Source of the DNA: Gammaproteobacteria bacterium
GTDB lineage: Bacteria; Pseudomonadota; Gammaproteobacteria; Steroidobacterales; Steroidobacteraceae
Length of the DNA stretch: 64,000 nt
Assembly: GCA_040002315.1 (NCBI GenBank)
Contig: JBDUEQ010000146.1
Location: 6,009-70,008 of the forward strand
Reading direction: 5' to 3'
The notes under the pieces are model-generated. The model did no database searches. It saw only the letters and a list, made by a program, of their open reading frames with translations, and was not told the DNA's origin. The stretch's first letter is position 1. The number at the start of each line of letters is the position of its first letter. The position numbers and the translations under genes were made by a program. Shown in pieces: positions 24,241-42,738 of this stretch.

Positions 24241-24262
24241 AAACTTGCTGGTCTCGGCACGG

Positions 24263-27200: not shown

Positions 27201-27313
27201 CGAGTGAGCGGCCGCAAGAGGCTCTTCTGCACCAGCGCAAGGCCGATGAAATTCGCGAAGCGATCGAAAGAAGTCTCGATTCGTCGGAGTTGGTCGCACA
27301 ACTCTCGTCATAG
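24263..27313 (+). CDS. STAND-type regulator: N-terminal XRE-family HTH + AAA_16 P-loop NTPase + TPR array
   Basis: HTH LRRRRKALDLTQEALAECVSCSGFAIRKIEADERRPS. Walker A GEPGIGKS, Walker B ILVVDDIQWAD, and the LAL-type GNPFFL motif. About 500 aa of TPR-like repeats follow. The start is ambiguous (TTG 24245, ATG 24263 or 24272). Confidence 0.8.
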   Translation: MGGMQELTQSFGYWLRRRRKALDLTQEALAECVSCSGFAIRKIEADERRPSLPLAHRLADALAVPAQERRAFLDAARAVRSATRLPPGGSPVNSPSSNAGEDPPREAAVYAKNEAAPFVGRTKEYDVLAELVASLAGGIGNTVLIEGEPGIGKSRLIREIVRHAESLGLPIIATNCYQIERAIPYQPVINLVTRALNRASSSALSKLAPVSLAELAALVPAVAQRYPQLPELSRDFPEARQARLSHAVGQLFEAAGDGRPSILVVDDIQWADEASARVLHYLARQAAQQPTLMIYAYRDDDLASDERLALLVESLHRELGARRLPLSRLRFVDASSLIGAFYDAKRETPWLAARLFQETAGNPFFLVSILQSLSDGETQLDERNGKGPGLLPDALRAAVRVRVAHVPKQIRPTLEIAAVLGRRFDFDTLREATNEPEADALESVETLVKRGFLREEADDGVYDFSHDKVREVVYRDIGSARRRLLHRLVAEALERRDEGELYEREARLSEHYERAQEWSRALKYLILTGERSLALFAMRDALHWLDRAIALSETHPEALDAHQRLALYERRGAARALAGQTDGAVADMRHVIDSARTAGESEKARDALIQLGMAYRRADLYEAATACLTEALAETRKLQDEYQAAGILYHLGTVAWSTGLNGQAIAAHEEAVAICERLGLADLNAVQAYHGRGEAYFANAQPTQAIGCFVRSLQLSRQIGDKAYESENLMMIGHACVGGKGLGDYARAVRNFDEALEIAYNADLQWHMGPTLLGLDHVRACTGSYGEAWTGMQKTVRWLASLKQVRYQLIAYDYVGELLLDLHLNEQAVEQMECGLSLARTSGINFWRAAMEAHLTVAQMRLGRNTGTAALEMALVRTRGAAERYLMIPCLDAMAEVALASGTPQRCREFAGELLVLAESNDLREVEARARRWLGEALLAEAAHKEAHAELSRAAALAQGVGRVRLQLDVERALARVFVSSERPQEALLHQRKADEIREAIERSLDSSELVAQLSS

Positions 27314-27400
27314 TCCGGGAAACAGGCGTTGGTTCGCAGCATTCGCTAGACATCTGCTGTTGCCGCAGGGTAGCTTCCATGCTGCTTGGCTGGAGTTGCC

Positions 27401-29047
27401 GTGAAATCGTATCTGTTGCCGTACCCCATGGCTGCCTGGGTGTTCTTCATGTCCGCAGCCGCGTTCGCTCAGCCTGTAACGGACAGTTTCTCCGAGGCCG
27501 ATAGGTTGCGGGGCAACTATGGCCCCCATCGCTCCAACAACGATCTGCTGTACTACCATTTGGATGTACGAGTCGATCCCGATAATCAGTACCTGAGCGG
27601 CAAGAATTCCATTCGATTCAAGATGCTCAAAGACGGGACGAGAATTCAGCTCGATCTCGTGCCGGCATTCAAGATTGAAAAAATACTCTGGGATCAGCCG
27701 AAGGGCGACCCTCAACCACTACATTTCGAGCGTGCGGCGGGACGTACCGTCTATGTTGATTTTCCCGGCACACTGCACCGCGGTGGCGTCTACACCATCG
27801 AGTTCTATTATTCAGGGCATCCTGTGGAAATGGGCCGATTTGGCGGATTTGCGTTCCGTAAAGATCCTATGGGGCGCAATCTGGTCAATACGGCCTGCGA
27901 GGAAGAGGGTGCCAGCGTTTGGTGGCCCAACAAGGATCAGTGGCGTGACGAAGTGGACAGCATGGACATCAGCGTCGAGGCTCCCAGCGACCTGGTCGAG
28001 GTATCCGGAGGGCGGTTTCAAGGCAAGCAAGACCTGCCCGATGGCTACACACGCTGGAATTGGCATGTTCAGTATCCCATCAACAACTACGACGTGTCAT
28101 TGAACATAGGCAAGTACGTGCATTTCGATGACCGGTACGGCGCTCTGACGCTCGACTACTACGTTTTCCCGGAAGATCTGGACAAGGCGAAGCGCCAATT
28201 CGTACAGGTCAAGGACATGCTTGGTGCGTTCACTCACTACTTCGGCGAGTATCCGTTTGCGAATGACGGTTACAAGCTCGTTGAGGCGCTGTATTCCGGA
28301 GTGGAGAATCAGACCGCCATCACCTACGGCAATCATTTCGAGAACGGCTATCTGGGAAAACCCACGGAAGGCATAGGAACTCGCTTCGATTTCATCATCG
28401 TGCACGAAAGCGCGCATGAATGGTTCGGCAACAGCATCACCGCGCAGGACCGCTCGGACATGTGGATCCACGAAGGATGGGCGAATTACAGTGAGGCGTT
28501 GTTCGTGGAGCAGATGTGGGGCAAGCAGGACGCCATCACCTACGTGAATACGGGAAAGGAGCGGGTGAAAAACCAGGTTCCGGTCATTTCCGAGGAGGGA
28601 GTATTCAGCACCCCGCCGCCGGACCAGTACAAGAAGGGCTCGTTATTTCTGAATACTCTGCGCAGCGTGGTCGACGACGATAGAGAATGGTTCTCGTTGC
28701 TTCGGGACTATTACCAACATTTCAAATATCAGACCATCATGACGACGGACATGGTCGCCTTCTTTAATCGTCATACTGGCAAACAACTGCAGCCGATCTT
28801 CGATGAATATCTACGGCATGCCGCCATCCCGACTCTTGAACTGCGTTTCAACGAGACCGCACACTCGATGTCGTACCGCTGGCTCGCGGACGAGAAGGGT
28901 TTTGCCATGCCGGTGCGGGTCGGTCGAAAGGACAAATGGCAAGTCATTCATCCCACCCAATCCTGGCGGACAATGACCACCGGCATCGGCAAAGATGATT
29001 TCGAAGTCGCGACGGATCTGTACTATATAAACGTCAGTAAGCACTAG
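27401..29047 (+). CDS. secreted M1-family zinc metallopeptidase (aminopeptidase N-like)
   Basis: The GTG at 27401 follows ggag. Signal peptide ...WVFFMSAAAFAQP. Gluzincin signature HESAHEWFGN-X-WIHEG (HEXXH-X18-E). Confidence 0.85.
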   Translation: MKSYLLPYPMAAWVFFMSAAAFAQPVTDSFSEADRLRGNYGPHRSNNDLLYYHLDVRVDPDNQYLSGKNSIRFKMLKDGTRIQLDLVPAFKIEKILWDQPKGDPQPLHFERAAGRTVYVDFPGTLHRGGVYTIEFYYSGHPVEMGRFGGFAFRKDPMGRNLVNTACEEEGASVWWPNKDQWRDEVDSMDISVEAPSDLVEVSGGRFQGKQDLPDGYTRWNWHVQYPINNYDVSLNIGKYVHFDDRYGALTLDYYVFPEDLDKAKRQFVQVKDMLGAFTHYFGEYPFANDGYKLVEALYSGVENQTAITYGNHFENGYLGKPTEGIGTRFDFIIVHESAHEWFGNSITAQDRSDMWIHEGWANYSEALFVEQMWGKQDAITYVNTGKERVKNQVPVISEEGVFSTPPPDQYKKGSLFLNTLRSVVDDDREWFSLLRDYYQHFKYQTIMTTDMVAFFNRHTGKQLQPIFDEYLRHAAIPTLELRFNETAHSMSYRWLADEKGFAMPVRVGRKDKWQVIHPTQSWRTMTTGIGKDDFEVATDLYYINVSKH

Positions 29048-29180: not shown

Positions 29181-30062
29181 TCACACCGTACATAGCCGGA
29201 AGGCCTCCGCGAGCGATACGAACGGATCGCTGCGCGTCGGTTCGAACTCGTGCGCGACATATCCCTGATAGTTGAGGTCAGCGATGGCGGCGGCGATGGC
29301 GGGGTAGTTGAGTTCCTGGGTGCCGTTGATCTCATGGCGGCCCGGGACGCCGCCGGTATGAAAATGTCCAATCCACTGGATGTTGTCGCGGATAGTCCGG
29401 ATCACATCGCCCTCCATGATCTGCATGTGATAGATGTCATACAACAACTTCACCCGCGGCGAATTGACTCCCTTCAGGACTGCAACCCCGAATGCGGTAT
29501 GATCTCCCTGGTAACCCGGGTGGTTCACTTTGCTGTTAAGCAGCTCCACGCAGATGGTGACACCCTGCTCGGTGGCGAGGGGCGCAATTTTTGCAAGGCC
29601 CGCGACGCAATTGGCGATCGCCGCCTGGTCGTCGATGCCCGGGACACGATTCCCAAACATGGCGATGACGTTCGGAACCTGTGCGCGCGCTGCGAGCGGG
29701 AGCACCGTTTCTAATTCGTTCAGCAGCATTGCGTGATGGGCGGGGTCGTTGAAACCCGTCTCGATGAATTTCTCCCGCCGGCTGGCATAGCTCATTGAGA
29801 CGGTGAGCCCTGCATCGCGCGCAACCGTCCACTCATCCGGGAACAACAGATCGATCGCCCGGAAGCCAATCGGTTTCACGCGGCGGCACAGATCGGGCAG
29901 CGGTATACGTGCGTACGGCCAGCGGCACAGCGATTGCTGGAGCCGCCCGTTGGACGAACCTGACGAGTCCGCCCGGACTTCGCCAGCAGCGAGAATGCCG
30001 GCAGCCCCCGCCAGCGCCCTGAATGTAGCGCGGCGGCTGATCGGGTGGTATTTGTCCGGCAT
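29181..30062 (-). CDS. Tat-exported xylose-isomerase-like TIM-barrel protein (hydroxypyruvate isomerase / sugar phosphate isomerase-epimerase family)
   Basis: Twin-arginine leader MPDKYHPISRRATFRALAGAAGILAAGEVRA. TIM-barrel family motifs ICVELLN...HPGYQ and IGHFHTGG.PGRHE. Confidence 0.8.
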   Translation of the reverse strand: MPDKYHPISRRATFRALAGAAGILAAGEVRADSSGSSNGRLQQSLCRWPYARIPLPDLCRRVKPIGFRAIDLLFPDEWTVARDAGLTVSMSYASRREKFIETGFNDPAHHAMLLNELETVLPLAARAQVPNVIAMFGNRVPGIDDQAAIANCVAGLAKIAPLATEQGVTICVELLNSKVNHPGYQGDHTAFGVAVLKGVNSPRVKLLYDIYHMQIMEGDVIRTIRDNIQWIGHFHTGGVPGRHEINGTQELNYPAIAAAIADLNYQGYVAHEFEPTRSDPFVSLAEAFRLCTV

Positions 30063-30082
30063 GCGCCTCGAGCTACTGTACT

Positions 30083-30982
30083 TCAGCTCATGGCGTGCAG
30101 ATAGGCGTACGCATGCCGAGCCGCCTGCACTTGGCTCATACGCGCGAACGGCCCTTCCTGTTCCACAAAGTAGTGTTGCAAGCCCGCCTTCGATGCTGCG
30201 GCGAATATCGGCTTGTAGTCGATGATGCCGTGTCCCAATTCGGCTCCGGCAGGTTCGGCCTCCTTACCGTCAACCTTACTGGGTGGCAGGAAGTCCTTGA
30301 CGTGAATCATAGGAAAACGATGGGGGTATTTCCTGAAATAGTCTGCGGGATTGCCGCCGCCCAGCACCATCCAGCCGCAGTCGATCTCGAACTTCACCAG
30401 TTCCGGGTCTGTTTCACGCAGCATGAGGTCGTAGCCGGTGGCGCCCCCGCCTTGGTCGTCCAATTCGCCGTGGTGATTGTGATAGGCGTACTGAAGTCCG
30501 GCCTGCTTGGCCTTCTCGCCTATTTTATTGGCGAGCTCGGCCGATCGCTTTGCTTCATCCAGAGTCATCGCCTGTGTTGGGTTGACAAGCGGTGGACGCA
30601 AACTACCGCGCAGGCTGCCGCTGGTGGCGTAATGTGCGCCCAGTGCGTGCGCATCATCGAAGGCTGCCCCCAAATTGGCAATGTCGAACTGCAGGTGCGC
30701 GCTGGGGCAGGCCAGGCCGTTCTCATCGAGCAGCTTGCGAAATTCCCTCGCCGACAGATTGCCGAAACCGGCCGTTTCTACCTCGCCGAAGCCAATCTCC
30801 TTGATGGCCTTCAAGGTGCCCTCTGGATTCTCTTTGATGCCCGCGTTGACCGCATAGAGCTGAATGCCTATGGGCTTGCCCATTGGATTGGAAAACGCGC
30901 GCGGCAACCAATTGGATGCACCCAGCGCCGCGCCCAATCCACCCGACCGGATGAGGAACTTTCTTCGGGACAATGATTTCAT
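30083..30982 (-). CDS. Tat-exported xylose-isomerase-like TIM-barrel protein
   Basis: The ATG at 30982 gives MKSLSRRKFLIRSGGLGAALGA. Family-typical YAYHNHHGEL and PMIHVKD motifs. Confidence 0.8.
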   Translation of the reverse strand: MKSLSRRKFLIRSGGLGAALGASNWLPRAFSNPMGKPIGIQLYAVNAGIKENPEGTLKAIKEIGFGEVETAGFGNLSAREFRKLLDENGLACPSAHLQFDIANLGAAFDDAHALGAHYATSGSLRGSLRPPLVNPTQAMTLDEAKRSAELANKIGEKAKQAGLQYAYHNHHGELDDQGGGATGYDLMLRETDPELVKFEIDCGWMVLGGGNPADYFRKYPHRFPMIHVKDFLPPSKVDGKEAEPAGAELGHGIIDYKPIFAAASKAGLQHYFVEQEGPFARMSQVQAARHAYAYLHAMS

Positions 30983-31006
30983 GTTTGCAGTCTCCACCAC
31001 AGATCA

Positions 31007-31035
31007 TAACGATATTACATTTTCGTAACCGATAT
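31007..31035. promoter_or_regulatory. TAAC(C)GATAT direct repeat in the divergent promoter of the GMC locus
   Basis: TAACGATAT at 31007-31015 and TAACCGATAT at 31026-31035. They lie about two helical turns apart in an AT-rich 89-nt intergenic region between starts 30982 (-) and 31072 (+). Confidence 0.25.
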
Positions 31036-31071
31036 ACACTAGCCTGATAACTTTGTGGGGTCCTGCCGGCA

Positions 31072-32754
31072 ATGCTGCAGTCTGCACACTATGACGCGAT
31101 TGTGGTCGGCTCCGGCATATCCGGCGGGTGGGCCGCGAAGGAGCTCACGGAGAAGGGGCTGCGTGTCCTGCTGCTCGAGCGGGGCCGCAACGTTGAGCAC
31201 ATCAAGGACTACGTCAACGCCACTAAAGCGCCTTGGGAGTATTTGCACCGAGGCGGCCGTACGTACGCCATGGAACAGGCTTACCCCGTGCTCAAGCGAG
31301 ACTATCCGCTCAATGAGAAGAACCTCGCCTTCTGGGTGAACGAGAAGGACTCGCCCTACACGGAAGTGAAACGATTCGACTGGTATCGAGGTTATCAGGT
31401 CGGTGGCCGTTCGCTCACCTGGGGGCGCCAGAGTTACCGCTGGAGCGATTTCGACTTCGAGGGCAATGCAAAGGATGGTATCGCGGTCGACTGGCCGATT
31501 CGTTATGGTGAGCTTGCGCATTGGTACGACCACGTTGAAAGGCACGCGGGAATCTCGGGCTCACGCGACGGGCTGGCTCAGCTTCCCGACGGGCAATATT
31601 TACCTGCAATGCCGCTCAATTGCGGTGAGGAGTTGGTCGCCAACCGGCTCAAGGGCAAGTTCGACGGTAAGCGTCAAATCATCGCGGGACGCACCGCGAA
31701 TGCCACCAAGGCGCTGGAAGGGCGCGCGCCTTGTCAGTATCGGAACGCATGTTGGCTAGGCTGCCCGTACGGAGCCTACTTCAGCACGCAGTCCTCGACG
31801 CTGCCGGCGGCGGCGAAGACCGGCAAGCTCACGCTCAAGCCTTGGTCGATCGTGACCGAGGTTCTCTACGACAAAGATCGCAAGCGCGCCAGTGGCGTAC
31901 GGGTGCTCGATGCCGTCACCGAGCAGTGGGCCGACTATACCGCGAAGTTGGTCTTTCTCTGTGCCTCCACGCTCAATTCAACGTGGCTGCTGCTGCGATC
32001 CGCAACGGACGTGTGGCCGGGGGGCCTCGGCAGCAGCTCAGGTGAACTCGGTCACAACCTCATGGACCATCATTTCCGCTGTGGCGCGGAGGGCAAACTC
32101 TCGGGCTTGGACGACAAGTACTACTACGGACGTCGTCCTACCGGCATCTACATTCCGCGGTATCGCAATTTGTTCGGCGACAAGCGGCAGTACCTGCGTG
32201 GGTTTGGCTACCAAGGCAGCGCCAGCCGCGAAGGATGGTCGCGCGCGGTCAAAGAACTGGGTGTGGGTGCAGCCTTCAAGGACGAGCTGACCTCGCCTGG
32301 ACCCTGGGTGTTTGGTGCCACGGGATTCGGCGAAATGCTTCCCAATCACGCCAACCACATTGGGCTTGACGCATCGAGGCAGGACAAGTGGGGACTGCCG
32401 GTGCTCAAAATTGATTGCGCCACCGGCGAGAACGAGCACTTGATGCGCAAGGATATGATGTCAGACATGGCGGAGATGCTCGAGCAAACGGGGGCGAAAA
32501 TGATCAGCACGTACAATGACGGATATTTTCCGGGCATGAGCATCCACGAGATGGGCACCGCGCGCATGGGGAAGTATCCCACGAGCTCTGTGCTGAACGC
32601 GCACAATCAGGTGTGGGATGCCCCGAACGTGTTCGTCACCGACGGAGCGTGCATGACGTCTTCAGCGTGTCAGAACCCTTCGCTCACATATATGGCGCTC
32701 ACTGCTAGAGCCGCGGATTATGCCGTGAATGAACTCAATCGACGCAACCTTTGA
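31072..32754 (+). CDS. GMC-family FAD flavoprotein oxidoreductase (no own signal peptide), copy 1
   Basis: Rossmann motif YDAIVVGSGISGGWAAKELTEKGLRVLLLERG. GMC C-terminal region (HEMGTARMG...NVFVTDGA). 560 aa. Confidence 0.85.
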   Translation: MLQSAHYDAIVVGSGISGGWAAKELTEKGLRVLLLERGRNVEHIKDYVNATKAPWEYLHRGGRTYAMEQAYPVLKRDYPLNEKNLAFWVNEKDSPYTEVKRFDWYRGYQVGGRSLTWGRQSYRWSDFDFEGNAKDGIAVDWPIRYGELAHWYDHVERHAGISGSRDGLAQLPDGQYLPAMPLNCGEELVANRLKGKFDGKRQIIAGRTANATKALEGRAPCQYRNACWLGCPYGAYFSTQSSTLPAAAKTGKLTLKPWSIVTEVLYDKDRKRASGVRVLDAVTEQWADYTAKLVFLCASTLNSTWLLLRSATDVWPGGLGSSSGELGHNLMDHHFRCGAEGKLSGLDDKYYYGRRPTGIYIPRYRNLFGDKRQYLRGFGYQGSASREGWSRAVKELGVGAAFKDELTSPGPWVFGATGFGEMLPNHANHIGLDASRQDKWGLPVLKIDCATGENEHLMRKDMMSDMAEMLEQTGAKMISTYNDGYFPGMSIHEMGTARMGKYPTSSVLNAHNQVWDAPNVFVTDGACMTSSACQNPSLTYMALTARAADYAVNELNRRNL

Positions 32755-32766
32755 GCTGTAGCGAAC

Positions 32767-33402
32767 ATGTCGTCCGAACCGGAACAAGTGCAGACGCTCA
32801 ATCGTCGAGAGGCAATTCGGCGGGTCAGCGCCATGCTGGGAGGCGTTGCATTGGTCGGCGGGAGCGGCCTGTTGACCGCCGTAGCTACTTCCGAGCAAGG
32901 CGCGCCGGGCGAATTCAGCATCAAACAAATCGCATTGCTGGACGAAATCGCCGAAACGATTCTTCCCGCCACCAAGACTCCGGGCGCGAAGGCCGCCAAG
33001 GCCGGTGCATTCATGGCGCTGATGGTCACCGATTGCTACGGTCCCGACGAGCAGAAGATATTCCGCGAAGGCATGGTTACAGTGGACCAGGCGATGCAGC
33101 AGGCAAACAAAGTGTCGTTCCTGCAGGCATCGTCGCAACAGCGCCTCGCCGTGCTCACCATTCTTGACCAAGAACAGAAGCGCATGATGGATGCGCGCGA
33201 AGCTGCAGATCATAACGCTGCAGCGCGGCATGACAAGCAACCGGCACACTACTTTCGCATGATGAAAGAACTCGCGCTGCTCGGCTACTTCACGTCCGAA
33301 ATCGGTTGCATGCTGGTATTGCGCTACATCGAGTCGCCGGGCCGCTTCGATCCGTGTATCCCATGCACGGCGGGCGAGCCGGCTTGGGCGTCGCATGCCT
33401 GA
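32767..33402 (+). CDS. gluconate 2-dehydrogenase subunit 3-family small subunit with Tat leader, copy 1
   Basis: Leader NRREAIRRVSAMLGGVALVGGSGLLTA. About 210 aa, immediately after GMC copy 1. The family is known as the Tat hitch-hiker subunit of FAD dehydrogenase complexes. Confidence 0.7.
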   Translation: MSSEPEQVQTLNRREAIRRVSAMLGGVALVGGSGLLTAVATSEQGAPGEFSIKQIALLDEIAETILPATKTPGAKAAKAGAFMALMVTDCYGPDEQKIFREGMVTVDQAMQQANKVSFLQASSQQRLAVLTILDQEQKRMMDAREAADHNAAARHDKQPAHYFRMMKELALLGYFTSEIGCMLVLRYIESPGRFDPCIPCTAGEPAWASHA

Positions 33403-34561
33403 GCTCGTCGGTAACAGCGCATCTGTTCTGCCCTTGCGCCGTCTTCGTGCTGGCATCGTTGGCGGCGGGCGCGGAGCGTTCATAGGGTCGATACACCGCA
33501 TAGCTGCCGAGCTCGACGGCCAGGCGCTGGTGGTGGCGGGTGCCATGTCCGCGGATCCGCAGATCGCCCGGGAAAGCGCCGCGGCCTGGTTTCTCGAGCG
33601 CGCCTACGACTCCTACACCGACATGGCCCTGGCGGAATGCGCCCTCGAGAACGGCATCGATTTCGTCATCATTGCAACCCCTAATCATCTGCACTACCCC
33701 GTTGCGAAGGCATTTCTCACAGCAGGGGTCCACGTCATCTGCGACAAACCACTCGCCTTCACGGTCGCCGAGGCAGAAGAACTGGTGCGACTTGTTGACG
33801 AAGGCGCGACGCTGTTTGCGCTCACGCACAACTACACGGGCTATCCGGCCGTGCGCCAGGGGCGCGCGATGGTTCGCGCTGGACAGTTGGGCGACATTCG
33901 CAAAGTCATGGTCGAATACACCCAGGACTGGCTGATGGAACCGTTGGAAAACCGGGGCAACAAGCAGGCGGAGTGGAGAACGGATCCTGCACGGTCAGGC
34001 CTTGGCGGCTGTGTGGGTGATATCGGGTCGCACGCCGAGAATCTGCTCGAGTATGTCACGGGTCTCGAGATCGAATCCTTATGCGCCGACTTGAGCAGTA
34101 TCGTCCCGGGCCGCCGCTTGGATGACGACGGCAATATACTGTTGCGGCTGCGTGGCGGAGCCAAGGGGACGCTGGTGTGCTCACAAATTGCCTGCGGGGA
34201 GGAGAACCGACTCTCCATTCGAGTATATGGATCCGAGGCGGGGCTGGAGTGGCATCAGCAGGAACCGAACACACTCATCTACAAGGCCGCCGGCAAGCCG
34301 TGGGCGCGGCTACGGACCGGCCAGAGCTACATGAGTGAGTCCGCCAGGGCTGCGACGCGAACGCCGGCTGGACATCCCGAGGGCTATCTCGAAGCCTTTG
34401 CGAACATCTACCGCGGCTTCATCGAGGACGTACGCCGGGTCGGGTCCGGTCAACCACCGCGGCGGGACTACCCCGGCGTTCGAGACGGCCTGCGCGGCTT
34501 GCGCTTCGTTGAACGCGCGGTGGCGAGTTCGCAGTCCGGTTCGGTTTGGCTCAAGTTGTAG
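33395..34561 (+). CDS. Gfo/Idh/MocA-family NAD(P)-dependent oxidoreductase (cytoplasmic)
   Basis: N-terminal Rossmann region LRAGIVGGGRGAFIG and an EKP-type motif as ICDKPLA. 8-nt overlap with the upstream gene. No signal peptide. Confidence 0.85.
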   Translation: MPELVGNSASVLPLRRLRAGIVGGGRGAFIGSIHRIAAELDGQALVVAGAMSADPQIARESAAAWFLERAYDSYTDMALAECALENGIDFVIIATPNHLHYPVAKAFLTAGVHVICDKPLAFTVAEAEELVRLVDEGATLFALTHNYTGYPAVRQGRAMVRAGQLGDIRKVMVEYTQDWLMEPLENRGNKQAEWRTDPARSGLGGCVGDIGSHAENLLEYVTGLEIESLCADLSSIVPGRRLDDDGNILLRLRGGAKGTLVCSQIACGEENRLSIRVYGSEAGLEWHQQEPNTLIYKAAGKPWARLRTGQSYMSESARAATRTPAGHPEGYLEAFANIYRGFIEDVRRVGSGQPPRRDYPGVRDGLRGLRFVERAVASSQSGSVWLKL

Positions 34562-34567
34562 GATCCT

Positions 34568-35797
34568 ATGACTCCCATCATTAGAATTCGTCTTTGCACC
34601 ATGATGTTCCTGGAGTTCTTCATCTGGGGCGGTTGGTTCGTGACCATGGGCAGTTACCTGGCGTCGAACCTTCACGCGACCGGAGCGCAGACCGCGCTCG
34701 CCTACTCCACCCAGTCATGGGGAGCCATCATCGCGCCATTCATCGTCGGGCTCATCGCGGATCGCTACTTCAACGCCGAACGGCTTTTGGGGGTCATCCA
34801 CATCGGCGGTGCCATACTGATGTACGTGTTGTTCTCGAGCCGGGATTTCGCTGGGTTCTATCCGTATCTGTTGGCGTACATGATTCTATACATGCCGAGC
34901 TTGGCACTCGTCAATTCAATTGCATTTCGACAGATGAATGATCCCTCCAAGCATTTTTCGAGCATCCGCGTCTGGGGCACGATCGGTTGGATCGTGGCGG
35001 GCCTGGTGATCAGCTATCTGTTCGCCTGGGATTCGAGCAAGGGAATGACGCAAGGCTTCCTCAAGAACACCTTTCTGATGTGTTCCATGGCCTCATTCGC
35101 GCTGGGGCTGTACAGCTTCACACTGCCGCAAACGCCGCCCGCGCCCAGACTCAAAAACGGCAGCGGGATAAGTGCCCTGCTGGGGTTCGATGCATTGGTG
35201 CTGTTGAAGCAACGGAACTTTGTCGTGTTCTTCGTGGCGTCGATATTGATCTGCATTCCGCTCGCGTTCTATTACCAGAACGCCAATCAGTTTCTTACCG
35301 AAATTCACGTCGCCAATGCCACCGGCAAGCAAACCATCGGCCAGATGTCCGAAGTGCTGTTCATGTTGCTGATCCCGTTGTTCCTGAACCGTTTTGGCAT
35401 GAAGACCACCCTGCTGCTCGGCATGTTGGCTTGGGCTCTTCGGTATATATTATTTGCGTTCGGCAACGCTCACGAGCTTGCATACATGTTGCTGCTCGGG
35501 ATCGCGCTGCATGGCGTGTGCTATGACTTCTTCTTTGTCTCCGGACAGATCTACACCGACTCCAAGGCGGGTCCACAGCACAAGAGTGCCGCGCAGGGCT
35601 TGATCACGTTGGCTACCTACGGCGTCGGCATGCTGATGGGGTTTTGGGCCGCCGGTCGCATCGACGATCTGTACTTCGCGGGCGCGGTGCACGACTGGAA
35701 AGCAATTTGGCTTTATCCGGCGGGATTTGCGGCCCTGGTGTTCGTGTTGTTCGCGTTGACCTTCCGCAATGAGACCATCGGGTCCGCCAAATCATGA
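34568..35797 (+). CDS. MFS permease of the nucleoside:H+ symporter (NupG/XapB/YegT) family
   Basis: The N-terminus [24 protein letters not shown]...[10 protein letters not shown] parallels E. coli NupG (FLQFCLWGSWLTTLGSYM...LLGIVADKW). 12 predicted TM helices. Confidence 0.85.
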
Positions 35798-37038
35798 CGC
35801 ACGTGACGGAATTCAAACCCCGCCCGATGAAGCTCAGCGTGCTCACGGCGGCGCTGCAGGAACTCACGCCGCGCGAGCGGCGTGAGGCAGACCCAGACCT
35901 CGCCGTCGAGGAGTGGCTGGAATTTGCGAGACAGATGGATTGTCCGCACATCGAGCTCTCGGCGGCGCTGCATCCCGGCGAGAGCGATGTGCCGGCGGCC
36001 GCGCTTCTCGATCCCGTGGCGAATACGCTGGACCTGCGCCAACCCTTTGACCGCAAGCGCGCCGCGCGCTTGCGGCAGGCAATGCAGGCGACCCGAGTCG
36101 GTCTGTCGGATCTAGCCTACTTCGACAACATGCTGGCCCCCGACGATTCCGTGCGGCGGGAGAAGCACGAACTGATGCTGAGGGTGTTCGACGCTGCGGT
36201 TCTGCTCGGCACGGACGCCGTGACCGGCTTCGTTGGCCGCAATCCGTTATTGGAAATGGACGCCAATTTAGCCATGTTCGAACAAGTGTTCGTGCCGCTG
36301 CTAAAGGCAGCCAAGGCTCGCGGGCTGACCTTTCGGGTCGAGCAATGTCCCATGCCGGGATGGAACATCACCGACAAGTGGCATAACAACATCGCCTATG
36401 CACCGGGTCCGTGGATTGCACTGCATCGGATCTGCGAGCGTCACGGCGTCGGCGATCAGTTCCGCATTCACTACGATCCCTCGCATGCGATCTTGATGGG
36501 ACAGGATTCACGTTCGGTGTTTCAATACTTGAAGGACGAAGGCTATAATTTTTTGATCAGCGGTTTTCACGTCAAGGGGCAGGTCATCGACTCGCGCGGC
36601 GTCTCCGGCTGGGGCTATGGCGGGCAGACCATGCAGCGCGGGGACTGGCGCGGCGGGAAGCCCTCCACCGATCCGCTTGAGCAACAGAACGCCTGGAAGA
36701 AGCAAACCGTGTTTTCGGAACACGAACTGCCGGGGACGGCGCGGCACGATCCGCTCGCGTACTTGCAGAATCGAACCGTGGATTGGCTGGACCATCAATT
36801 GGCGGCGCGCGAACTGCTGGACATCGCGCCTGATAAAACCTTCCTGGTCGTAGAACACGAATATCCCAAGGCCCGCATCCAGGACAAGGCACGCCTCAAG
36901 CCGATTCTGGCGGGCTCCATCGCCTTCACCCGCGCGATCGACGAAGCCGCCGCGGCGATGTACGCGCTGCAGCATGAGGTGCTCGCTTCTCAGGGCATCG
37001 CAGTGCAGGGTGTCGGGCGCGAGGCCTACCGGTCCTGA
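35794..37038 (+). CDS. xylose-isomerase-like TIM-barrel protein, signal-less (cytoplasmic), long form
   Basis: ATGA overlap with the permease stop. 414 aa, with family-like motifs [10 protein letters not shown] and IHYDPSH. No leader. Confidence 0.7.
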
Positions 37039-37054
37039 GCAAGACCGCAACGCC

Positions 37055-38854
37055 ATGCCCCTCGTAACTGCGGAAACCCAACAGAGCGACTACGACGTCA
37101 TCGTTGTGGGCTCTGGTGCCGCCGGTGGGCAGTCGGCGTATACGCTGAGCATGGACGGCGCCAAGGTCCTCATGCTCGAGGCCGGCCGCAATTACTCCGC
37201 AACCGAGTCGTCCATGTTCCGGACACCGGAACTCGCGCCTCTGCGTGCTGCCGACACACCGGACAAACCTTTCGGGTTCTACGACGCGACGGTGGATGGA
37301 GGCTGGAACGTTCCGGGGGAGCCCTATGTGCGGGCGAGTGAAGATGACGGGAGCCGCTTCGAATGGTGGCGCGCGCGCATGCTGGGCGGCCGCACCAATC
37401 ACTGGGGACGCATCTCACTGCGCAATGGTCCCTATGACTTCAAGCCGAAAACCCGAGATGGCTTGGGGTTCGATTGGCCCATCGGGTACGATGACGTCGC
37501 TCCGTACTACGACAAAGTCGAGTTGTTGATCGGCGTGTACGGCGGCAACGAGGGGCTCGAGAACACTCCGAATTCGCCGCCGGGTTGCCTGCTGCCGCCG
37601 CCCAAGCCCTTGGTCAGCGATCACTTGATAAGGCAGCGCGCGAAGAGGCTCGGGATTCCTGTAATACCCGGTCACCGCGCAGTGCTGACCCAGACGCTCG
37701 ATTACAAGAATTCACCGGCACGTCTGCATCCCGGCAATGCAAAGGCGCAGAGGATTCTGATGGCGGACATGCGCAGCCGCAGCCCTTGTCTGTGGGCCAC
37801 TCCTTGCGGGTCCGGCTGTGCCGTCCGCGCCAACTATCAGTCGACCACCGTCCATTTGCCGCCGGCTCTTAAGACCGGGAATCTCGACATCATCACCGAC
37901 GCGATGGTTTATGAGGTGACACTCGGCCGCGATGGCCGCGCCAACGGCGTCAATTTCATCGACCGGATCAGCGGCAAACAGCGGCACGCTGCCGCCAGGG
38001 TCGTGATTCTGGCCGCGAGCGCCTGCGAGTCGGTGCGTATTCTCCTTAACTCCAAGAGCGCGCAGTTCCCACAAGGCCTCGCGAATTCGAGCGGCAAGGT
38101 CGGGCAATATCTGATGGACACGGTGGGCTCTGCCGTCGGCGGTCAAGTCCCACTGCTCGAGAATCTGCCGCCGCTCAATGAGGACGCTGCCGACGGCGGT
38201 CAGATGTATGTCCCCTGGTGGTTGTACCGCGAGCAGCATGCAGGACAACTCGGATTCGCCCGCGGCTACCACATCGAATTCGGCGGCGGCAAGCGAATGC
38301 CCGGCGACGGCACGGGAGCCGGCCTCGAATGGCTCACCGGCGGCAGCTACGGGGCGAAATTCAAGCAGGACGTTCGACGCTATTACGGTTCATTCGTCTG
38401 GTTCAGCGGCCGCGGCGAGATGATCCCCAACGATCAGTCCTTCTGCGAGATCGATCGCAGCGTCAAGGACAAGTGGGGAATCCCCGTGCTGCGTTTTCAT
38501 TGGCAGTGGTCGGAGCACGAGCGGCGGCAAGCCGCCCATATGCAAAAAACCTTTGCGGGCATCATTGATGCCATGGGCGGGCGGACACAGCACCCGGTAC
38601 AGAGCGACGGCGCCAAGGCCATCGCGCCCGGAGGTTCCATCATTCACGAGGTCGGCGGCGCCCTCATGGGATCCGATGCCAAGAGTTCGGTCACGAATTC
38701 CTGGGGTCAGACCTGGGACGTGAGCAATCTATTCATCAACGACGGAGCGGTGTTCGCGTCGAACGCGGACAAGAATCCGACGCTCACCATCATGGCGTTG
38801 GCATGGCGCGCATCGGACCATATTCTCGAGCGCATGCGGCGCAAGGAGCTGTAA
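37055..38854 (+). CDS. GMC-family FAD flavoprotein oxidoreductase, copy 2
   Basis: The ATG at 37055 gives MPLVTAETQQSDYDVIVVGSGAAGGQSAYTLSMDGAKVLMLEAG. GMC C-terminus (IHEVGGALMG...NLFINDGAVF). Confidence 0.85.
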   Translation: MPLVTAETQQSDYDVIVVGSGAAGGQSAYTLSMDGAKVLMLEAGRNYSATESSMFRTPELAPLRAADTPDKPFGFYDATVDGGWNVPGEPYVRASEDDGSRFEWWRARMLGGRTNHWGRISLRNGPYDFKPKTRDGLGFDWPIGYDDVAPYYDKVELLIGVYGGNEGLENTPNSPPGCLLPPPKPLVSDHLIRQRAKRLGIPVIPGHRAVLTQTLDYKNSPARLHPGNAKAQRILMADMRSRSPCLWATPCGSGCAVRANYQSTTVHLPPALKTGNLDIITDAMVYEVTLGRDGRANGVNFIDRISGKQRHAAARVVILAASACESVRILLNSKSAQFPQGLANSSGKVGQYLMDTVGSAVGGQVPLLENLPPLNEDAADGGQMYVPWWLYREQHAGQLGFARGYHIEFGGGKRMPGDGTGAGLEWLTGGSYGAKFKQDVRRYYGSFVWFSGRGEMIPNDQSFCEIDRSVKDKWGIPVLRFHWQWSEHERRQAAHMQKTFAGIIDAMGGRTQHPVQSDGAKAIAPGGSIIHEVGGALMGSDAKSSVTNSWGQTWDVSNLFINDGAVFASNADKNPTLTIMALAWRASDHILERMRRKEL

Positions 38855-39471
38855 TGGATCGGCGCACGACCCTCAAGTGGGTGCTGGCCACGAGTACCGT
38901 CTGGACGCTTCGGCGACATCAAGGCGCGTGGGCCGACGCGGCACCGGCGGGACGAGGTTACGGCACCGATCCCAACCTTGCGGCGAACTACCATCCTGGC
39001 GAGCTGTGGCCGCTGGCGATGACCACCGTGCAGCGGCGGCTGGCGCGTATTTTGTCGGACATCATCATTCCGTCCGATGAGCGCTCGCCCAGTGCCTCGC
39101 AGGCCGGTGTGGTGGACTTCATCGATGAATGGGTAAGCGCGCCGTATTCAGACTTTCAACGAGATAGAGGTATCGTGTTAGGCGGCTTTACCTGGCTGGA
39201 CACCGAAGCCGCGCGCCGCTTCGGGAAGGAATTCATCGAACTCGACTCCGCGCGGCAACTTGGAATGTGTGACGACATCTGCGATGGATCGCGCGTCACG
39301 GACTCGCTGCGCGAGGCTGCCCGCTTCTTCGCACTGTACCGCGACTTGACCGCCGGCGGATTTTACTCGACTGCCATCGGCCGCAAAGACTTGGATTACA
39401 TCGGCAATGTACCTTTGGCTGGTTTTGATGGACCTCCGCCCGCGCTGCTCAAGTCGTTGGGCCTGCTATGA
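38854..39471 (+). CDS. gluconate 2-dehydrogenase subunit 3-family small subunit with Tat leader, copy 2
   Basis: TAATG stop/start overlap with GMC copy 2. Leader MDRRTTLKWVLATSTVWTLRRHQGAWA. Shared family core (IIPSDERSPSASQAGVVDFID). Confidence 0.7.
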   Translation: MDRRTTLKWVLATSTVWTLRRHQGAWADAAPAGRGYGTDPNLAANYHPGELWPLAMTTVQRRLARILSDIIIPSDERSPSASQAGVVDFIDEWVSAPYSDFQRDRGIVLGGFTWLDTEAARRFGKEFIELDSARQLGMCDDICDGSRVTDSLREAARFFALYRDLTAGGFYSTAIGRKDLDYIGNVPLAGFDGPPPALLKSLGLL

Positions 39472-39493
39472 ACACTTGTTTGAACGGTGAACT

Positions 39494-40189
39494 ATGAATG
39501 AGATGCGCTGCGCGGCCGCAATATTGGGTTTTGTGTGCGCGACATCGTTGTCCGCGGCGCCGGCGCCTGCGCCTGCGGACTTCGACTCGCCTTGGCGTCT
39601 TCTGGTGCAGGACCACGGCGCGCCCGAGTGGCGCGGCTGGAATACAACTGGATTCCCCGCCGGCTGGCATGTGGACGGCGGCGTGCTCTCCAAGGAAGGC
39701 GATGTCGAAGATCTGGTCACGAATCAGAGTTACGGAAATTTTGAGCTTGAGCTCGAATGGAAGATAGGCAAGGGCGGCAACAGCGGCGTTTTCTACCGCG
39801 GCACGCGCGAGTATGATCATATCTATTGGAGCGCTCCGGAATACCAGCTGCTCGATGACGCCAACGCCGGGGACGGCAAGAATCGCCTCACGTCTGCGGC
39901 CTCCGCGTACGCGCTCTATGCCGCGCCGGCCGGCGTAGTGTTGCCGTTTGATCATTGGAATAAAACTCGAATCATTGTCAACGGCTCGCACGTCGAGCAT
40001 TGGCTCAATGGCCGCAAGGTTGTGGACTATGAGCTCAGGAGCTCTGATTGGAGGAACAAGGTGGCTGCAAGCAAATTTTCGGCATACCCCAACTACGGCC
40101 TCGCGGCCGGTGGATTGATCGGCATCCAAGGAGATCACACGGGGGCACTGGCACTTCGTCACATCCGCATACGGGTACCGCCCCCATGA
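39494..40189 (+). CDS. DUF1080 (3-keto-disaccharide hydrolase family) secreted protein
   Basis: Sec leader ...CATSLSAAPAPA. Family motifs GWHVDGGVL, YGNFELELEWKIGKGGNSGVFYR and GLIGIQGDHTGALALRHIRI. Confidence 0.85.
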   Translation: MNEMRCAAAILGFVCATSLSAAPAPAPADFDSPWRLLVQDHGAPEWRGWNTTGFPAGWHVDGGVLSKEGDVEDLVTNQSYGNFELELEWKIGKGGNSGVFYRGTREYDHIYWSAPEYQLLDDANAGDGKNRLTSAASAYALYAAPAGVVLPFDHWNKTRIIVNGSHVEHWLNGRKVVDYELRSSDWRNKVAASKFSAYPNYGLAAGGLIGIQGDHTGALALRHIRIRVPPP

Positions 40190-40503
40190 CAGAGTCATCC
40201 GCAGCGAATTTGGAGCTGGCCCTGGTGCTGCCTCTCGGAGTGGTGGCGAATCAGCTGCTGCGGATAGAGGCGGATTTACGATTTCTGAACATGAAGGCGT
40301 TGCTCATTGCGAAGGAGCGCGAACGCGGCACCGTGGGCGCCCAGATATCGGTCCGCCTCGAACAGATCAATGAGGCGCTCGATCTGATCCGCCGCCTCAC
40401 GTCGGACATTGAAACAGACATGCTGCCGAAGTCCGCGACCGTTGCCGCTGCGTCATCAAAGGATCAGACATCCCGCAAACCGCTTCCCGAGCGCGACGAC
40501 TGA
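40186..40503 (+). CDS. hypothetical 105-aa protein, helical/coiled-coil-like
   Basis: ATGA overlap with the DUF1080 stop. MTESSAANLELALVLPLGVVANQLLRIEADLRFLNMKALLIAKERERG.... No family was recognised. Confidence 0.45.
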   Translation: MTESSAANLELALVLPLGVVANQLLRIEADLRFLNMKALLIAKERERGTVGAQISVRLEQINEALDLIRRLTSDIETDMLPKSATVAAASSKDQTSRKPLPERDD

Positions 40504-40548: not shown

Positions 40549-42738
40549 CTAGTGCACCGGACACAGGGACAGCCCCTGCTTGTTGTTGATACCTCCCGCG
40601 CAGGCCAGTTCCTGATTCAGTTGATTGACGAGCACGGCGTTCTTGCGCAAAGCGGACTCGAGCAATCCTGCGTGCTGCTGCGCTGTGCCCAATTCACCGC
40701 CTTCGACGGCTTCGGTCAGCCCGGGCAACTCGAGATGTGCATACGTATAGCGGCAGGCATACAGCAGGTGGCGATACCACGGGCGTCCTGGAATGCCTTC
40801 CGGATTGAGCCAGTTGCGCTCGATGTCCATCATTCCGCGATTGATCTGATCGGCGAGCAAGGGATCGATCTTACCCGAGGCGAGAGCGGCCCCAATCGTT
40901 TGAGTGAGCACTCGTCCGGCGTCTGCAAATTCATCGATCGCGGCGCGCAGCGAATTCAATTTCAGCCTGCCCACGTCGCTTTTCTTGGACAATGTATTGA
41001 GATACTCGCGAATGTGCGCGCCGTAGCTGCCGAAATCGTAGGGTAGGAAATCCGCGTTGGACAGCCGCAGCGCGAGGACGCCCCACAGCTGGGCCATCAG
41101 CCTGTGATAGTGGAATCCAGGATCGCCAAAATGGCTCATCCAGTAGAAATTGTCGTAGGCCGAATGGTAGACGCCATAAGGTCCCTCGAAGGTAAGGTCC
41201 AGTACCGGCACTCCGACGTGATCAAGCAGCGCCGCGTAATCGGAACCGCTGCCGATGCGCGTTTCGGTGAGGTTGAAATCGGTCACCGAGTCGTTCTCCT
41301 TGCGCTCTCGCAGATTCTTGGACCGGGACAGCTGCCACACCTGGTACAAGGATTTTCCCGACGGATCCACAGCGCTCTTGCTGGTCTCCACCATCAGCGG
41401 GGCCAGGGAGCCTACGCTGCTGCCCTGAAAGTCTGGCCCCGTGACCGCAATGTCGACATTGAGGTAGGCGACGGCCTTCTGCCGTAGCTCGTGCGCGAAC
41501 TGTTCGCTCCATTCGGCCGAGCCTGCGTAGCTTGTCTCTTCGCCATCCCAGCTGAGAAACACCATGGTGCGTTTGGGTCGAATGCCCTGCTTCAACAATT
41601 TCCCCAAGCCGCGGGTCATCTCGATCATTGAAGCGGTGCCGCTGCTGGGATCAGCCGCGCCGAACACCCAGGCATCGCGATGGTTGCCGGCCAGAACCCA
41701 TTCATCGGGATAGTCACTGCCGCGAATGCGTGCTTCCACCACGTAGTTCGGTTTGATGGACTCCGACATGTCGATCTTAAGATGCGCCCGAACCCGATCG
41801 CCGCCCAGATGATATTTGAATGGCAATCCGCCCTGCCAGTCGTCGGGTGCGAGCGGGCCATCCATGTTTTCGAGCAGTGGCTTAGCATCGTGCCACGAAA
41901 GCGGCAGCGCCATGATTTTGGGGACGGACGGGGAATCATGCGCAGGAATGCGCTTTGCTCCCGGCAAGGACGGCCAGCCCGGGGTCGTTGGATCTCCCGC
42001 CTGCCGAAAGTCGTATTCGATCGCGCCGCGCTGAAAATGAGTCTCCGGCCCGTACGGGCCTTTCGGGAATACCTTGCCCTGTTTGTAACCGTCTTCGGCG
42101 GGATCGCTGTAGATAAGTATCGCCGCGGCCCCTTCTCGCTCCGCTGTCAACGCCTTGAAGCCGCGATAGCTGTATGGGTTGGAATATCGCACCAGCACGA
42201 TTTTTCCCTTGACGTCGATGCCATTCTTACGCAGCAGCGCAAAGTCTTCGGGATTGCCGCTATGCGCATAGATCACCGGCGCGGTGATGTCTCCGGACTT
42301 GGACATGCCGATCCAGGCCGAGCTGATGTGCGGATTCTTGGTGTCGGGATCCTCGTCGTATGCCGCCTCGCGTAGGCTGGCACGGTAGTGCGTCGGCGCC
42401 ACCATTTCGAGCGAGGTCTCCTTTGGATCGGAGCTGAAGACATCGTAGCGGCGGATGACAACGTCCTCAAGACCCTGGTTCTTCCATTCGCGAGCGATGT
42501 AACGCGCCAGCTCATTATTGCGATCCGATCCCGCGACGTGCGGTTCCGCGGTGAAGATGCGCAGCTGGCGTCTCGCCTCCGCGGCGGTAGGGATTGCCTT
42601 GAACCGCGCTTCGACGGCGGTTTCCTGCGTGGTGGAGGCGGCAGTAAATCCAAGCAGGCTTTGTGGGTGAGCGGGATGGGCGAGGAGGGCGGCCAGGGTG
42701 ACGAGGCCTGATGCCCGGTTCAAGTTGACGAGCTTCAT
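40549..42738 (-). CDS. M28-family peptidase of the glutamate carboxypeptidase II / transferrin-receptor-like type (PA + M28 + TFR-dimer)
   Basis: Signal peptide present. Motifs parallel GCPII: LAGNHRDAWVFGAADPSSGTA, FLSWDGEETSYAGSAEW and YHSAYDNFYW. Confidence 0.85.
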   Translation of the reverse strand: MKLVNLNRASGLVTLAALLAHPAHPQSLLGFTAASTTQETAVEARFKAIPTAAEARRQLRIFTAEPHVAGSDRNNELARYIAREWKNQGLEDVVIRRYDVFSSDPKETSLEMVAPTHYRASLREAAYDEDPDTKNPHISSAWIGMSKSGDITAPVIYAHSGNPEDFALLRKNGIDVKGKIVLVRYSNPYSYRGFKALTAEREGAAAILIYSDPAEDGYKQGKVFPKGPYGPETHFQRGAIEYDFRQAGDPTTPGWPSLPGAKRIPAHDSPSVPKIMALPLSWHDAKPLLENMDGPLAPDDWQGGLPFKYHLGGDRVRAHLKIDMSESIKPNYVVEARIRGSDYPDEWVLAGNHRDAWVFGAADPSSGTASMIEMTRGLGKLLKQGIRPKRTMVFLSWDGEETSYAGSAEWSEQFAHELRQKAVAYLNVDIAVTGPDFQGSSVGSLAPLMVETSKSAVDPSGKSLYQVWQLSRSKNLRERKENDSVTDFNLTETRIGSGSDYAALLDHVGVPVLDLTFEGPYGVYHSAYDNFYWMSHFGDPGFHYHRLMAQLWGVLALRLSNADFLPYDFGSYGAHIREYLNTLSKKSDVGRLKLNSLRAAIDEFADAGRVLTQTIGAALASGKIDPLLADQINRGMMDIERNWLNPEGIPGRPWYRHLLYACRYTYAHLELPGLTEAVEGGELGTAQQHAGLLESALRKNAVLVNQLNQELACAGGINNKQGLSLCPVH

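Follow-up and report, generated by a model that had tools for sequence, protein, structure and literature searches.

A locus predicted to encode non-hydrolytic glycoside catabolism in a member of the Steroidobacteraceae unites two flavoprotein dehydrogenase modules

A succession of oxidation, elimination, hydration and reduction has recently been recognised as an alternative to glycoside hydrolases, and its substrates are alpha-, beta- and thio-linked glycosides as well as some C-linked ones. One described version is the GlycDH operon of Agrobacterium tumefaciens and Rhizobium sp. GIN611 (Bitter et al. 2023, PMC10628242), which comprises the dehydrogenase GlycDH, a subunit exported by twin-arginine translocation (Tat), two TIM barrels (AtOGE and AtHYD) and one Gfo enzyme. 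Expressed together with a “TAT-pathway signal protein”, the flavin adenine dinucleotide (FAD) enzyme GlycDH converts O- and C-glucosides, the C-glucosides puerarin and nothofagin among them, into 3-keto-glycosides; AtOGE is a Mn-dependent O-glycoside beta-eliminase, and for the A. tumefaciens Gfo enzyme there is preliminary evidence of a reduction of 3-keto-glucose to glucose (PMC10628242). Genetic work in Caulobacter has tied lactose use to a LacABC-type dehydrogenase together with a DUF1080 protein, a transporter, two “epimerases” and a reductase (PMC9007349, PMC8121099). DUF1080 proteins have been assigned the roles of 3-keto-alpha-glycoside 1,2-lyase and 2-hydroxy-3-keto-glycal hydratase, in a study that also reported the components of the pathway to be interchangeable (bioRxiv 10.1101/2024.03.25.586180). 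Here we describe a locus at positions 29181–40503 of a 64,000-nucleotide stretch of DNA (hereafter the window, at its full length) from a Steroidobacteraceae bacterium (contig JBDUEQ010000146.1), whose gene content makes it likely that it serves a respiratory-type, non-hydrolytic catabolism of glycosides by the same four reactions.

As seen by open reading frame (ORF) calling and Pfam searches, the locus consists of two divergent TIM-barrel genes on the minus strand and nine co-directional ORFs on the plus strand. The first gene of the plus-strand series, GMC1 (31072–32754, +), encodes a signal-less FAD-dependent GMC dehydrogenase of 560 amino acids (aa) whose full length aligns at 63% identity with GlycDH of Rhizobium sp. 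GIN611 (AEX01166.1; 553 aa / 561 aligned columns, 723 bits). The reference sequences of that operon (GlycDH, AtOGE, AtHYD and Gfo) were transcribed from Table S6 of PMC10628242, and because the GlycDH sequence was typed from a supplement read by optical character recognition, the true identity is probably slightly higher than 63%. GMC1 is predicted to be an orthologue of GlycDH, and hence named here as a putative glycoside 3-dehydrogenase.

The cleaving and reducing enzymes have their counterparts as well. TIM2 (30083–30982, −), a Tat-signalled TIM barrel of 299 aa, is 31% identical to AtOGE (E 2e-21), with the AYHNH and IHxKD motifs in alignment, and finds the PDB entries 8TCD/8TCS at 1e-24 and AtOGE itself (8BVK) at 3e-20; it would be a periplasmic 3-keto-beta-glycoside 1,2-lyase, that is, a beta-eliminase. 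The DUF1080 (3keto-disac_hyd) protein, of 231 aa with a Sec-type leader (39494–40189, +), matches 4JQT at 2e-33 and 8TDA at 2e-25, and both lyase activity on 3-keto-alpha-glycosides and hydratase activity on 2-hydroxy-3-keto-glycals are predicted for it in the periplasm. Judging by the molecule names, we take 8TCD/8TCS to be AL1/BT1 and 8TDA to be BT2157 of Nasseri et al. The Gfo/Idh/MocA NAD(P) oxidoreductase, GFO (33395–34561, +; 388 aa), has 50% identity with the Gfo enzyme from the GlycDH operon of A. tumefaciens (381 aa, E 1e-113), matches 3V5N at 2e-121 and is the predicted cytoplasmic 3-keto-hexose reductase. The initial annotation of this DNA had proposed that glycosides are oxidised and cleaved in the periplasm, and that a keto-sugar or aglycone is then imported and reduced or isomerised in the cytoplasm. 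Its periplasmic oxidation and cleavage and its cytoplasmic reduction are backed by the homologies just given (GMC1 63%, GFO 50%, TIM2 31%, DUF1080 2e-25), and we infer the two other steps, import of the keto-sugar and isomerisation by a third TIM barrel, TIM3.

The family to which each part had been assigned on first reading was recovered with Pfam: AP_endonuc_2 in the three TIM barrels (TIM1 1e-27, TIM2 7e-17, TIM3 2e-14), GMC_oxred_N/C in both GMC1 and the second dehydrogenase, GMC2, Gluconate_2-dh3 in the small subunits SS1 (5e-33) and SS2 (1e-20), GFO_IDH_MocA in GFO, Nuc_H_symport in the permease (1e-113) and PF06439 (3keto-disac_hyd/DUF1080) in the DUF1080 protein (6e-38). The compartments are read from the N-termini. 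Twin-arginine (RR) motifs stand at those of SS1 (NRREAIRRV, with the RR motif kept in 14 of 16 orthologues), SS2 (leader MDRRTTLKW; 54 of 76 orthologues by a strict regular expression), TIM1 (SRRATFRAL; 8 of 8) and TIM2 (SRRKFLIRS; 21 of 24), the last of which scores 16.6 with the NCBIfam model TAT_signal_seq against a cut-off of 16.7. Such motifs suggest export of these four proteins. By contrast with the small subunits, both GMC proteins open directly with the FAD-binding GxGxxG motif, and an RR motif was found in none of 15 GMC1 orthologues and in 3 of 81 GMC2 orthologues. GFO, whose Rossmann motif begins at residue ~20, and TIM3 have no leader, and that of the DUF1080 protein is hydrophobic and Sec-like. 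This agrees with the earlier picture of signal-less GMC proteins beside twin-arginine small subunits, with two Tat-signalled TIM barrels and one without a signal.

In both dehydrogenase pairs a signal-less catalytic subunit is followed by a Gluconate_2-dh3 small subunit with an RR leader, GMC1 by SS1 (32767–33402, +; 211 aa) and GMC2 by SS2 (38854–39471, +; 205 aa). A hitchhiker mechanism, in which the small subunit carries the export signal, has been demonstrated for the FAD-glucose dehydrogenase of Burkholderia (PMC6719666), and the motif pattern seen here fits such a mechanism, with SS1 as the predicted carrier of GMC1 and SS2 as that of GMC2.

Taken together, the pathway would run as follows. 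GMC1 and GMC2 would fold in the cytoplasm with FAD, and probably a 3Fe-4S cluster, and each would bind its own small subunit, whose Tat leader would carry it into the periplasm. There, the two dehydrogenases would oxidise the C3 hydroxyl of the non-reducing-end sugar of glycosides, the probable substrates of GMC1 being, like those of GlycDH, aryl O- and C-beta-glucosides and disaccharides. The 3-keto group would acidify H2, and the aglycone would be eliminated by TIM2 from beta-anomers and by the DUF1080 protein from alpha-anomers; the DUF1080 protein, perhaps with TIM1, would hydrate the resulting 2-hydroxy-3-keto-glycal to a 3-keto-hexose, which cytoplasmic GFO would turn with NAD(P)H into an ordinary hexose. 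By way of the 3Fe-4S cluster, electrons may reach a soluble acceptor in the periplasm, for which a c-type cytochrome is the likeliest candidate, and from there the respiratory chain; the permease would take in the keto-sugar, and TIM3 might isomerise, epimerise or hydrate what has been imported.

The second dehydrogenase, GMC2 (37055–38854, +; 599 aa), is also a signal-less FAD-dependent GMC protein. It is 31% identical both to GMC1 and to GlycDH (216 bits against the latter with blastp), and with so low an identity to GlycDH it belongs to a paralogous clade and is not an orthologue; only gene context suggests for it the role of glycoside 3-dehydrogenase. The nearest solved structures for both GMC proteins are the FAD-glucose dehydrogenase (FAD-GDH) of Burkholderia (6A2U) and the fructose dehydrogenase (FDH) of Gluconobacter (7W2J), to which phmmer gives 147–157 bits for GMC2 (E 6e-45 and 7e-42, respectively) and ~103 bits for GMC1. 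The cysteine motif C245-x5-C251-x3-C255 of GMC2, found in 82 of 82 orthologues, aligns to Cys212/218/222 of BcGDH, which are ligands of a 3Fe-4S cluster (PMC6719666); GMC1 has C221-x5-C227-x3-C231, present in 15 of 15 orthologues by pattern match and not by alignment. These motifs point to a 3Fe-4S cluster in both proteins. The His/Asn catalytic pair of GMC2 aligns with His476/Asn519 of BcGDH, and H116 of GMC2 (in 81 of 82 orthologues) occupies the position of BcGDH His105, a residue that adjoins FAD and shows continuous density with it (PMC6719666). GMC1 and GlycDH have Thr or Leu there and, because the GMC2 clade keeps the His105 equivalent and they do not, the two dehydrogenases may differ in their mode of FAD attachment.

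Taken as a whole, such features argue for dehydrogenases with an external acceptor rather than to O2-using oxidases. A kinship with C-glycoside 3-oxidases, which had been part of the first interpretation, proves remote: the C-glycoside oxidases 7DVE and 7QF8, together with pyranose oxidases, match the C-terminal domain only (residues ~427–555, ~130 aa) at no more than 47 bits, and the GMC proteins look like 3Fe-4S dehydrogenases. NCBIfam models of choline and other dehydrogenases were also tried on the GMC proteins and scored far below their cut-offs.

Of the proteins with less clear roles, TIM1 (29181–30062, −), a Tat-signalled, xylose-isomerase-like TIM barrel of 293 aa, resembles hydroxypyruvate isomerases and ketose 3-epimerases; in the PDB it comes closest to 3NGF and D-psicose 3-epimerases, it matches the 3-keto-D-glucoside 4-epimerase 6WN6 at 1e-6, and its partial matches to NCBIfam models lie far below cut-off. 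A periplasmic accessory isomerase, epimerase or hydratase is predicted. The permease (34568–35797, +; 409 aa), of the NupG/XapB family in the major facilitator superfamily (MFS), reaches 371 bits with NCBIfam TIGR00889, under the cut-off of 446, and a gene annotated “nucleoside permease” also occurs in a related cluster of Xanthomonas sacchari; we predict that it imports the keto-sugar, possibly a keto-glycoside, the substrate being a guess.

TIM3 (35794–37038, +; 414 aa) is a signal-less TIM barrel without any sequence match in PDB or NCBIfam. A library of 1.84 billion proteins holds relatives of it in 695 cluster representatives (50% identity clusters, E ≤ 1e-3), and no other protein of its module is as conserved within the Steroidobacterales (mean identity 85% over 22 loci). 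E183 and H231, both invariant, and the near-invariant E354/E356 are putative metal ligands. Since the AlphaFold model is weak (predicted local distance difference test score, pLDDT, of 62), Foldseek places TIM3 only at the level of the superfamily, among generic TIM-barrel relatives (SCO6571, ketose 3-epimerases, AtHYD 8RO4 and DgpB-C 7DRD). By sequence, TIM3 forms a small TIM-barrel subfamily that has no close characterised relative, and one may guess at a cytoplasmic, metal-dependent isomerase, epimerase or hydratase acting on the imported keto-sugar.

Nowhere in the window is there an ORF with two or more CxxCH motifs, and consequently no multi-haem cytochrome c gene. A hint about the acceptor comes from the cultured X. 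sacchari (NZ_CP010410.1, 217010–232623; locus L085), which has a GMC1-type cluster of the same families, with a GMC protein 68% identical, and in addition a 98-aa monohaem cytochrome c and a LacI regulator, both missing from the cluster of the window. Its presence there points to a small soluble cytochrome as the usual acceptor, here encoded elsewhere in the genome, and a soluble c-type cytochrome of that kind would take the electrons. The window itself contains, ~9 kb upstream of the cluster, an ORF for a small monohaem c-type cytochrome (19501–19986, −; Pfam Cytochrome_CBB3 5e-12, single CAPCH motif), which lies next to genes for an FAD_binding_4 oxidoreductase and a TauD-family dioxygenase (19872–21524, −, and 18559–19482, −). 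It is a conceivable acceptor for periplasmic flavodehydrogenases, and nothing links it to the GMC genes.

Several observations weigh against reading the whole locus as one such pathway. The electron acceptor is not encoded within the cluster, and a multi-haem cytochrome c ORF was found within 10 kb in only 2 of 81 related loci, each time ~7 kb away. GMC2 is just 31% identical to GlycDH, and AtHYD lacks a clear counterpart: TIM1 is 24% identical to it (E 1e-4) and TIM3 gives with hhalign a local match only, at 69% probability. Membership in the NupG family would normally suggest nucleosides. The source organism is known only as a metagenome-assembled genome, and the reading stands on homology. 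Lastly, the two parts of the locus are found apart in most genomes (GMC1 is present in 14 of 80 loci with GMC2) and so need not serve one substrate.

This last point comes from the conservation of the neighbourhood. A scan of the GTDB representative genomes with GMC2 gave at least 580 relatives, and the counts out of 80 below refer to the best of these, at 72–93% identity in Steroidobacterales, Xanthomonadales and Burkholderiales; full 10-kb flanks are available for 47 of them. Gene neighbourhoods are conserved across these three orders and the Alteromonadales. GMC2 and SS2 are adjacent in 76 of the 80 loci (in all 47 with full flanks) and are directly followed by DUF1080 in 42 (30 of 47). Among the 47, GFO occurs in 28, the NupG-like permease in 22, TIM3 in 18 and GMC1 in 10, and wherever GMC1 occurs SS1 adjoins it. 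The order GFO-NupG-TIM3-GMC2-SS2-DUF1080 is reproduced exactly in 17 of the 80 loci, and three more (L022, L034 and L035) have the same genes, with GFO and NupG separated by a called TIM2-like ORF. The full layout of the locus was seen in no more than three genomes, the closest ones (L002, L003 and L066), and in four others (L001, L026, L064 and L078) the GMC1 module is attached in a different arrangement. A chromid of Pseudoalteromonas (L082) carries AraC-Gfo-TIM-MFS-DUF1080-GMC-SS-TIM, with a GMC protein of 51% identity. The locus is therefore a fusion of two recurrent modules, TIM1-TIM2/GMC1-SS1 and GFO-NupG-TIM3-GMC2-SS2-DUF1080, which stand apart in most relatives. TonB-dependent receptor genes were noted near the GMC2 module in 26 related loci.

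Such a history raises the possibility, which we consider unlikely without dismissing it, that two autonomous systems simply lie side by side, a GlycDH-type aryl-glycoside module (TIM1, TIM2, GMC1 and SS1) and the GMC2 module, each with its own class of substrates and with no common intermediates. The rarity of GMC1 beside GMC2, the several orders in which the modules are joined, the restriction of the full layout to three genomes and the occurrence of each type of module alone in isolates (Pseudoalteromonas and X. sacchari) all favour it. However, GMC1-SS1 stands in the same packed string as GFO, with which SS1 overlaps, and GFO is the closest homologue of the reductase of the GlycDH operon. 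With neither a reductase nor a permease belonging to it at this locus, the GMC1 module must share GFO and the permease, and the reported interchangeability of the components also speaks for sharing. The juxtaposition of two modules is thus plausible as evolutionary history and less so as a description of function.

A different possibility concerns what might be new. TIM3 and the NupG-like permease could form an undescribed cytoplasmic branch for 3-keto-glycosides, with GMC2/SS2 as a distinct 3Fe-4S clade that has the His105 equivalent and no dedicated cytochrome c, although we hold this to be doubtful. If true, TIM3 would represent a new enzyme class, be it lyase, hydratase or epimerase, with an imported 3-keto-glycoside or keto-glycal as its substrate, and the permease would be a carrier of the NupG family for keto-sugars or aryl glycosides instead of nucleosides.

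Two further explanations seem to us quite improbable. One of them would link the GMC pairs to membrane-bound dehydrogenases of the gluconate 2-, sorbitol, fructose or glucose type, with free sugars or polyols as their substrates and the TIM barrels and Gfo enzyme processing keto-acids or ketoses. The small subunits do belong to Pfam Gluconate_2-dh3, the nearest solved structures are a FAD-glucose dehydrogenase and a fructose dehydrogenase, and GMC2 keeps the His105 position of BcGDH. Against this, GMC1 shares 63% identity with a glycoside 3-dehydrogenase and only ~103 bits with GDH/FDH, and even GMC2 scores higher with GlycDH (216 bits, blastp) than with GDH/FDH (147–157 bits, phmmer), two values that come from different programs and are only roughly comparable. 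A gene for a cytochrome c subunit is absent from the locus, the NCBIfam models of choline and other dehydrogenases fall short by far, and the DUF1080 gene found directly 3′ of GMC2-SS2 in 42 of 80 loci belongs to a family whose characterised members act on 3-keto-glycosides.

About as little probability attaches to a locus for C-glycosides, in which a GMC protein would oxidise an aryl-C-glycoside, the permease would import the 3-keto-C-glycoside, nucleoside-like in that it joins a planar aglycone to a sugar, and TIM3 would be a cytoplasmic C-C lyase. GlycDH does oxidise puerarin and nothofagin (PMC10628242), no function has been assigned to TIM3, and Foldseek lists DgpB-C (7DRD) for it among many TIM barrels. 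But that match is no better than those to generic epimerases and comes from a weak model (pLDDT 62), nothing like the beta subunit of known C-glycoside deglycosidases was recognised among the genes, oxidases of the CarA/PsG3Ox type are only remote relatives, and the periplasmic lyases TIM2 and DUF1080 point to the cleavage of O-glycosides. Finally, a system for nucleoside uptake and oxidation, suggested by the Nuc_H_symport match of 1e-113, is hardly credible, given a permease score below the NCBIfam cut-off for nucleoside permeases (371 against 446 bits), no nucleosidase, phosphorylase or deaminase gene, the same permease type in sugar-type clusters such as that of X. sacchari, and the match of all the other genes to enzymes of the 3-keto-glycoside pathway. 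Levoglucosan catabolism was rejected (NCBIfam LevoglcsnDh 99 bits, cut-off 650), as were inositol and nucleoside catabolism, for reasons of gene content and of NCBIfam scores that fall far short of the cut-offs.

To return to the glycoside locus itself, the plus-strand genes from GMC1 onwards follow one another at spacings of 12, −8, 6, −4, 16, −1, 22 and −4 nt, a tight packing that is ordinary in bacterial operons. The junctions include an 8-nt overlap of SS1 and GFO (33395–33402), an ATGA of NupG and TIM3 at 35794, a TAATG of GMC2 and SS2 (38852–38856, with the start of SS2 at 38854) and an ATGA at 40186 between DUF1080 and the last ORF, orf11. The ORF coordinates, these overlaps and the gaps of 22 nt or less (12, 6, 16 and 22) agree with what had been noted before. 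Two starts deserve comment. Many homologues of TIM3 begin at the Met equivalent to an alternative start at 35827, and the ATGA overlap at 35794 is therefore uncertain; for GMC2 the most likely start is 37055 rather than 36974, because the latter would run into TIM3. Ten co-directional genes had been claimed, of which we count nine, and the ninth, orf11 (40186–40503, +), is itself unsupported: this ORF of 105 codons lies across the stop codon of DUF1080, has no Pfam match, and finds a counterpart in 1 of the 80 related loci, that of the closest genome (L002), at 76% identity compared with 85–92% for its neighbours. It is a doubtful gene and probably not a conserved one.

The divergent genes are separated by 89 nt (30983–31071), presumably with the promoters of both directions. 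No inverted repeat or operator was found in this spacer, which is poorly conserved across the three genomes with the full layout, and a scan for consensus promoters and terminators gave sites no more frequent than in shuffled sequence. The flanks of the locus encode peptidases and an HTH-AAA-TPR protein, and the boundaries at 29181 and 40503 are therefore right. The peptidase-rich surroundings (27386–29047, 40549–47052 and 54694–57780) include an M1 aminopeptidase, an M28/PA/TFR-dimer peptidase, an S9 prolyl oligopeptidase, a beta-lactamase-fold protein and an S8 subtilase with a PA domain. The M1 peptidase gene stands between the cluster and the large HTH_31-AAA_16-TPR (STAND-like) regulator (24245–27313, +), and nothing indicates that this regulator controls the locus. 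Farther away, a FecR-like anti-sigma protein (16760–17818) and a TonB-dependent receptor with an N-terminal STN domain (13251–16742), both on the minus strand (13251–17818), form a cell-surface-signalling transducer pair unrelated to the cluster.

The locus and its relatives, at least 580 of them, would represent a GMC-flavoprotein, respiration-coupled version of the pathway that is common in soil Steroidobacterales, Xanthomonadales and Burkholderiales. They also bear on annotation. What is labelled a “choline dehydrogenase-like flavoprotein” would become a glycoside 3-dehydrogenase in the case of GMC1, and by gene context only in that of GMC2; a “sugar phosphate isomerase” would become a 3-keto-glycoside lyase (TIM2), and a “nucleoside permease” probably an importer of keto-sugars. 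No new principle is shown by the locus, and TIM3 and GMC2 are worthwhile targets for biochemistry.

Compared with the GlycDH operon, the window shares a GMC protein with a Tat small subunit, a TIM-barrel eliminase, a Gfo enzyme and the same logic of oxidation, elimination, hydration and reduction. Beyond that operon it has a second pair of GMC protein and small subunit, the DUF1080 protein, the NupG-like permease and the distinct 414-aa TIM3, whereas AtHYD has no clear orthologue; TIM2 of the window carries a Tat leader. The lack of a cytochrome c subunit, kinase and regulator had been regarded as setting this locus apart from characterised versions, yet the operon of A. tumefaciens as described (PMC10628242) likewise lists no cytochrome c, hydrolase, kinase or regulator. 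The missing glycoside hydrolase, cited to the same end, is moot because the DUF1080 protein and the TIM-barrel lyases are the bond-cleaving enzymes (bioRxiv 10.1101/2024.03.25.586180). The lacABC region of Caulobacter crescentus (PMC9007349, PMC8121099) clusters the same gene families, including the DUF1080 protein CCNA_01705, and oxidises in the periplasm; fitness data indicate that dehydrogenase, DUF1080 protein, transporter, TIM barrels and reductase act jointly in glycoside use. LacABC has a cytochrome c subunit, LacB, of which the window has no equivalent.

With BT2156-2160 of Bacteroides thetaiotaomicron and AL1-5 of Alistipes (bioRxiv 10.1101/2024.03.25.586180), the common elements are a periplasmic TIM-barrel 3-keto-beta-glucoside lyase, a DUF1080 lyase/hydratase and a cytosolic Gfo enzyme. 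The oxidant differs: there it is a Tat-exported Gfo/Idh/MocA protein whose tightly bound NAD is recycled by the 3-keto-sugar, whereas the window would use FAD/3Fe-4S GMC proteins coupled to respiration. The sole Gfo protein of the window has no export signal and scores 42 bits with NCBIfam BT_2158_fam, against a cut-off of 750. The FAD-GDH of Burkholderia (6A2U) and the FDH of Gluconobacter (7W2J) share with the window the C-x5-C-x3-C motif, the hitchhiker small subunit with its Tat leader and the His/Asn pair, GMC2 having also the His105 position; they differ in that the window has no multi-haem cytochrome c gene, in the distance of ~103–157 bits and in the substrate, which here would be the C3 hydroxyl of glycosides and not C1 of glucose or C5 of fructose. 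CarA/CarBC and PsG3Ox (7DVE, 7QF8) have in common with it the GMC superfamily and the oxidation of C3 before elimination, but CarA and PsG3Ox, oxidases that use O2, have neither small subunits nor Fe-S motifs and match the GMC proteins over the C-terminal ~130 residues only (~47 bits), and the locus has no gene for a CarC/DgpC-like beta subunit. Judged by its genes, the set is that of a known pathway, already described biochemically in Agrobacterium, genetically in Caulobacter and both mechanistically and structurally in Bacteroides and Alistipes; specific to this locus are its two fused dehydrogenase modules, along with the GMC2 clade and a TIM3 still uncharacterised.

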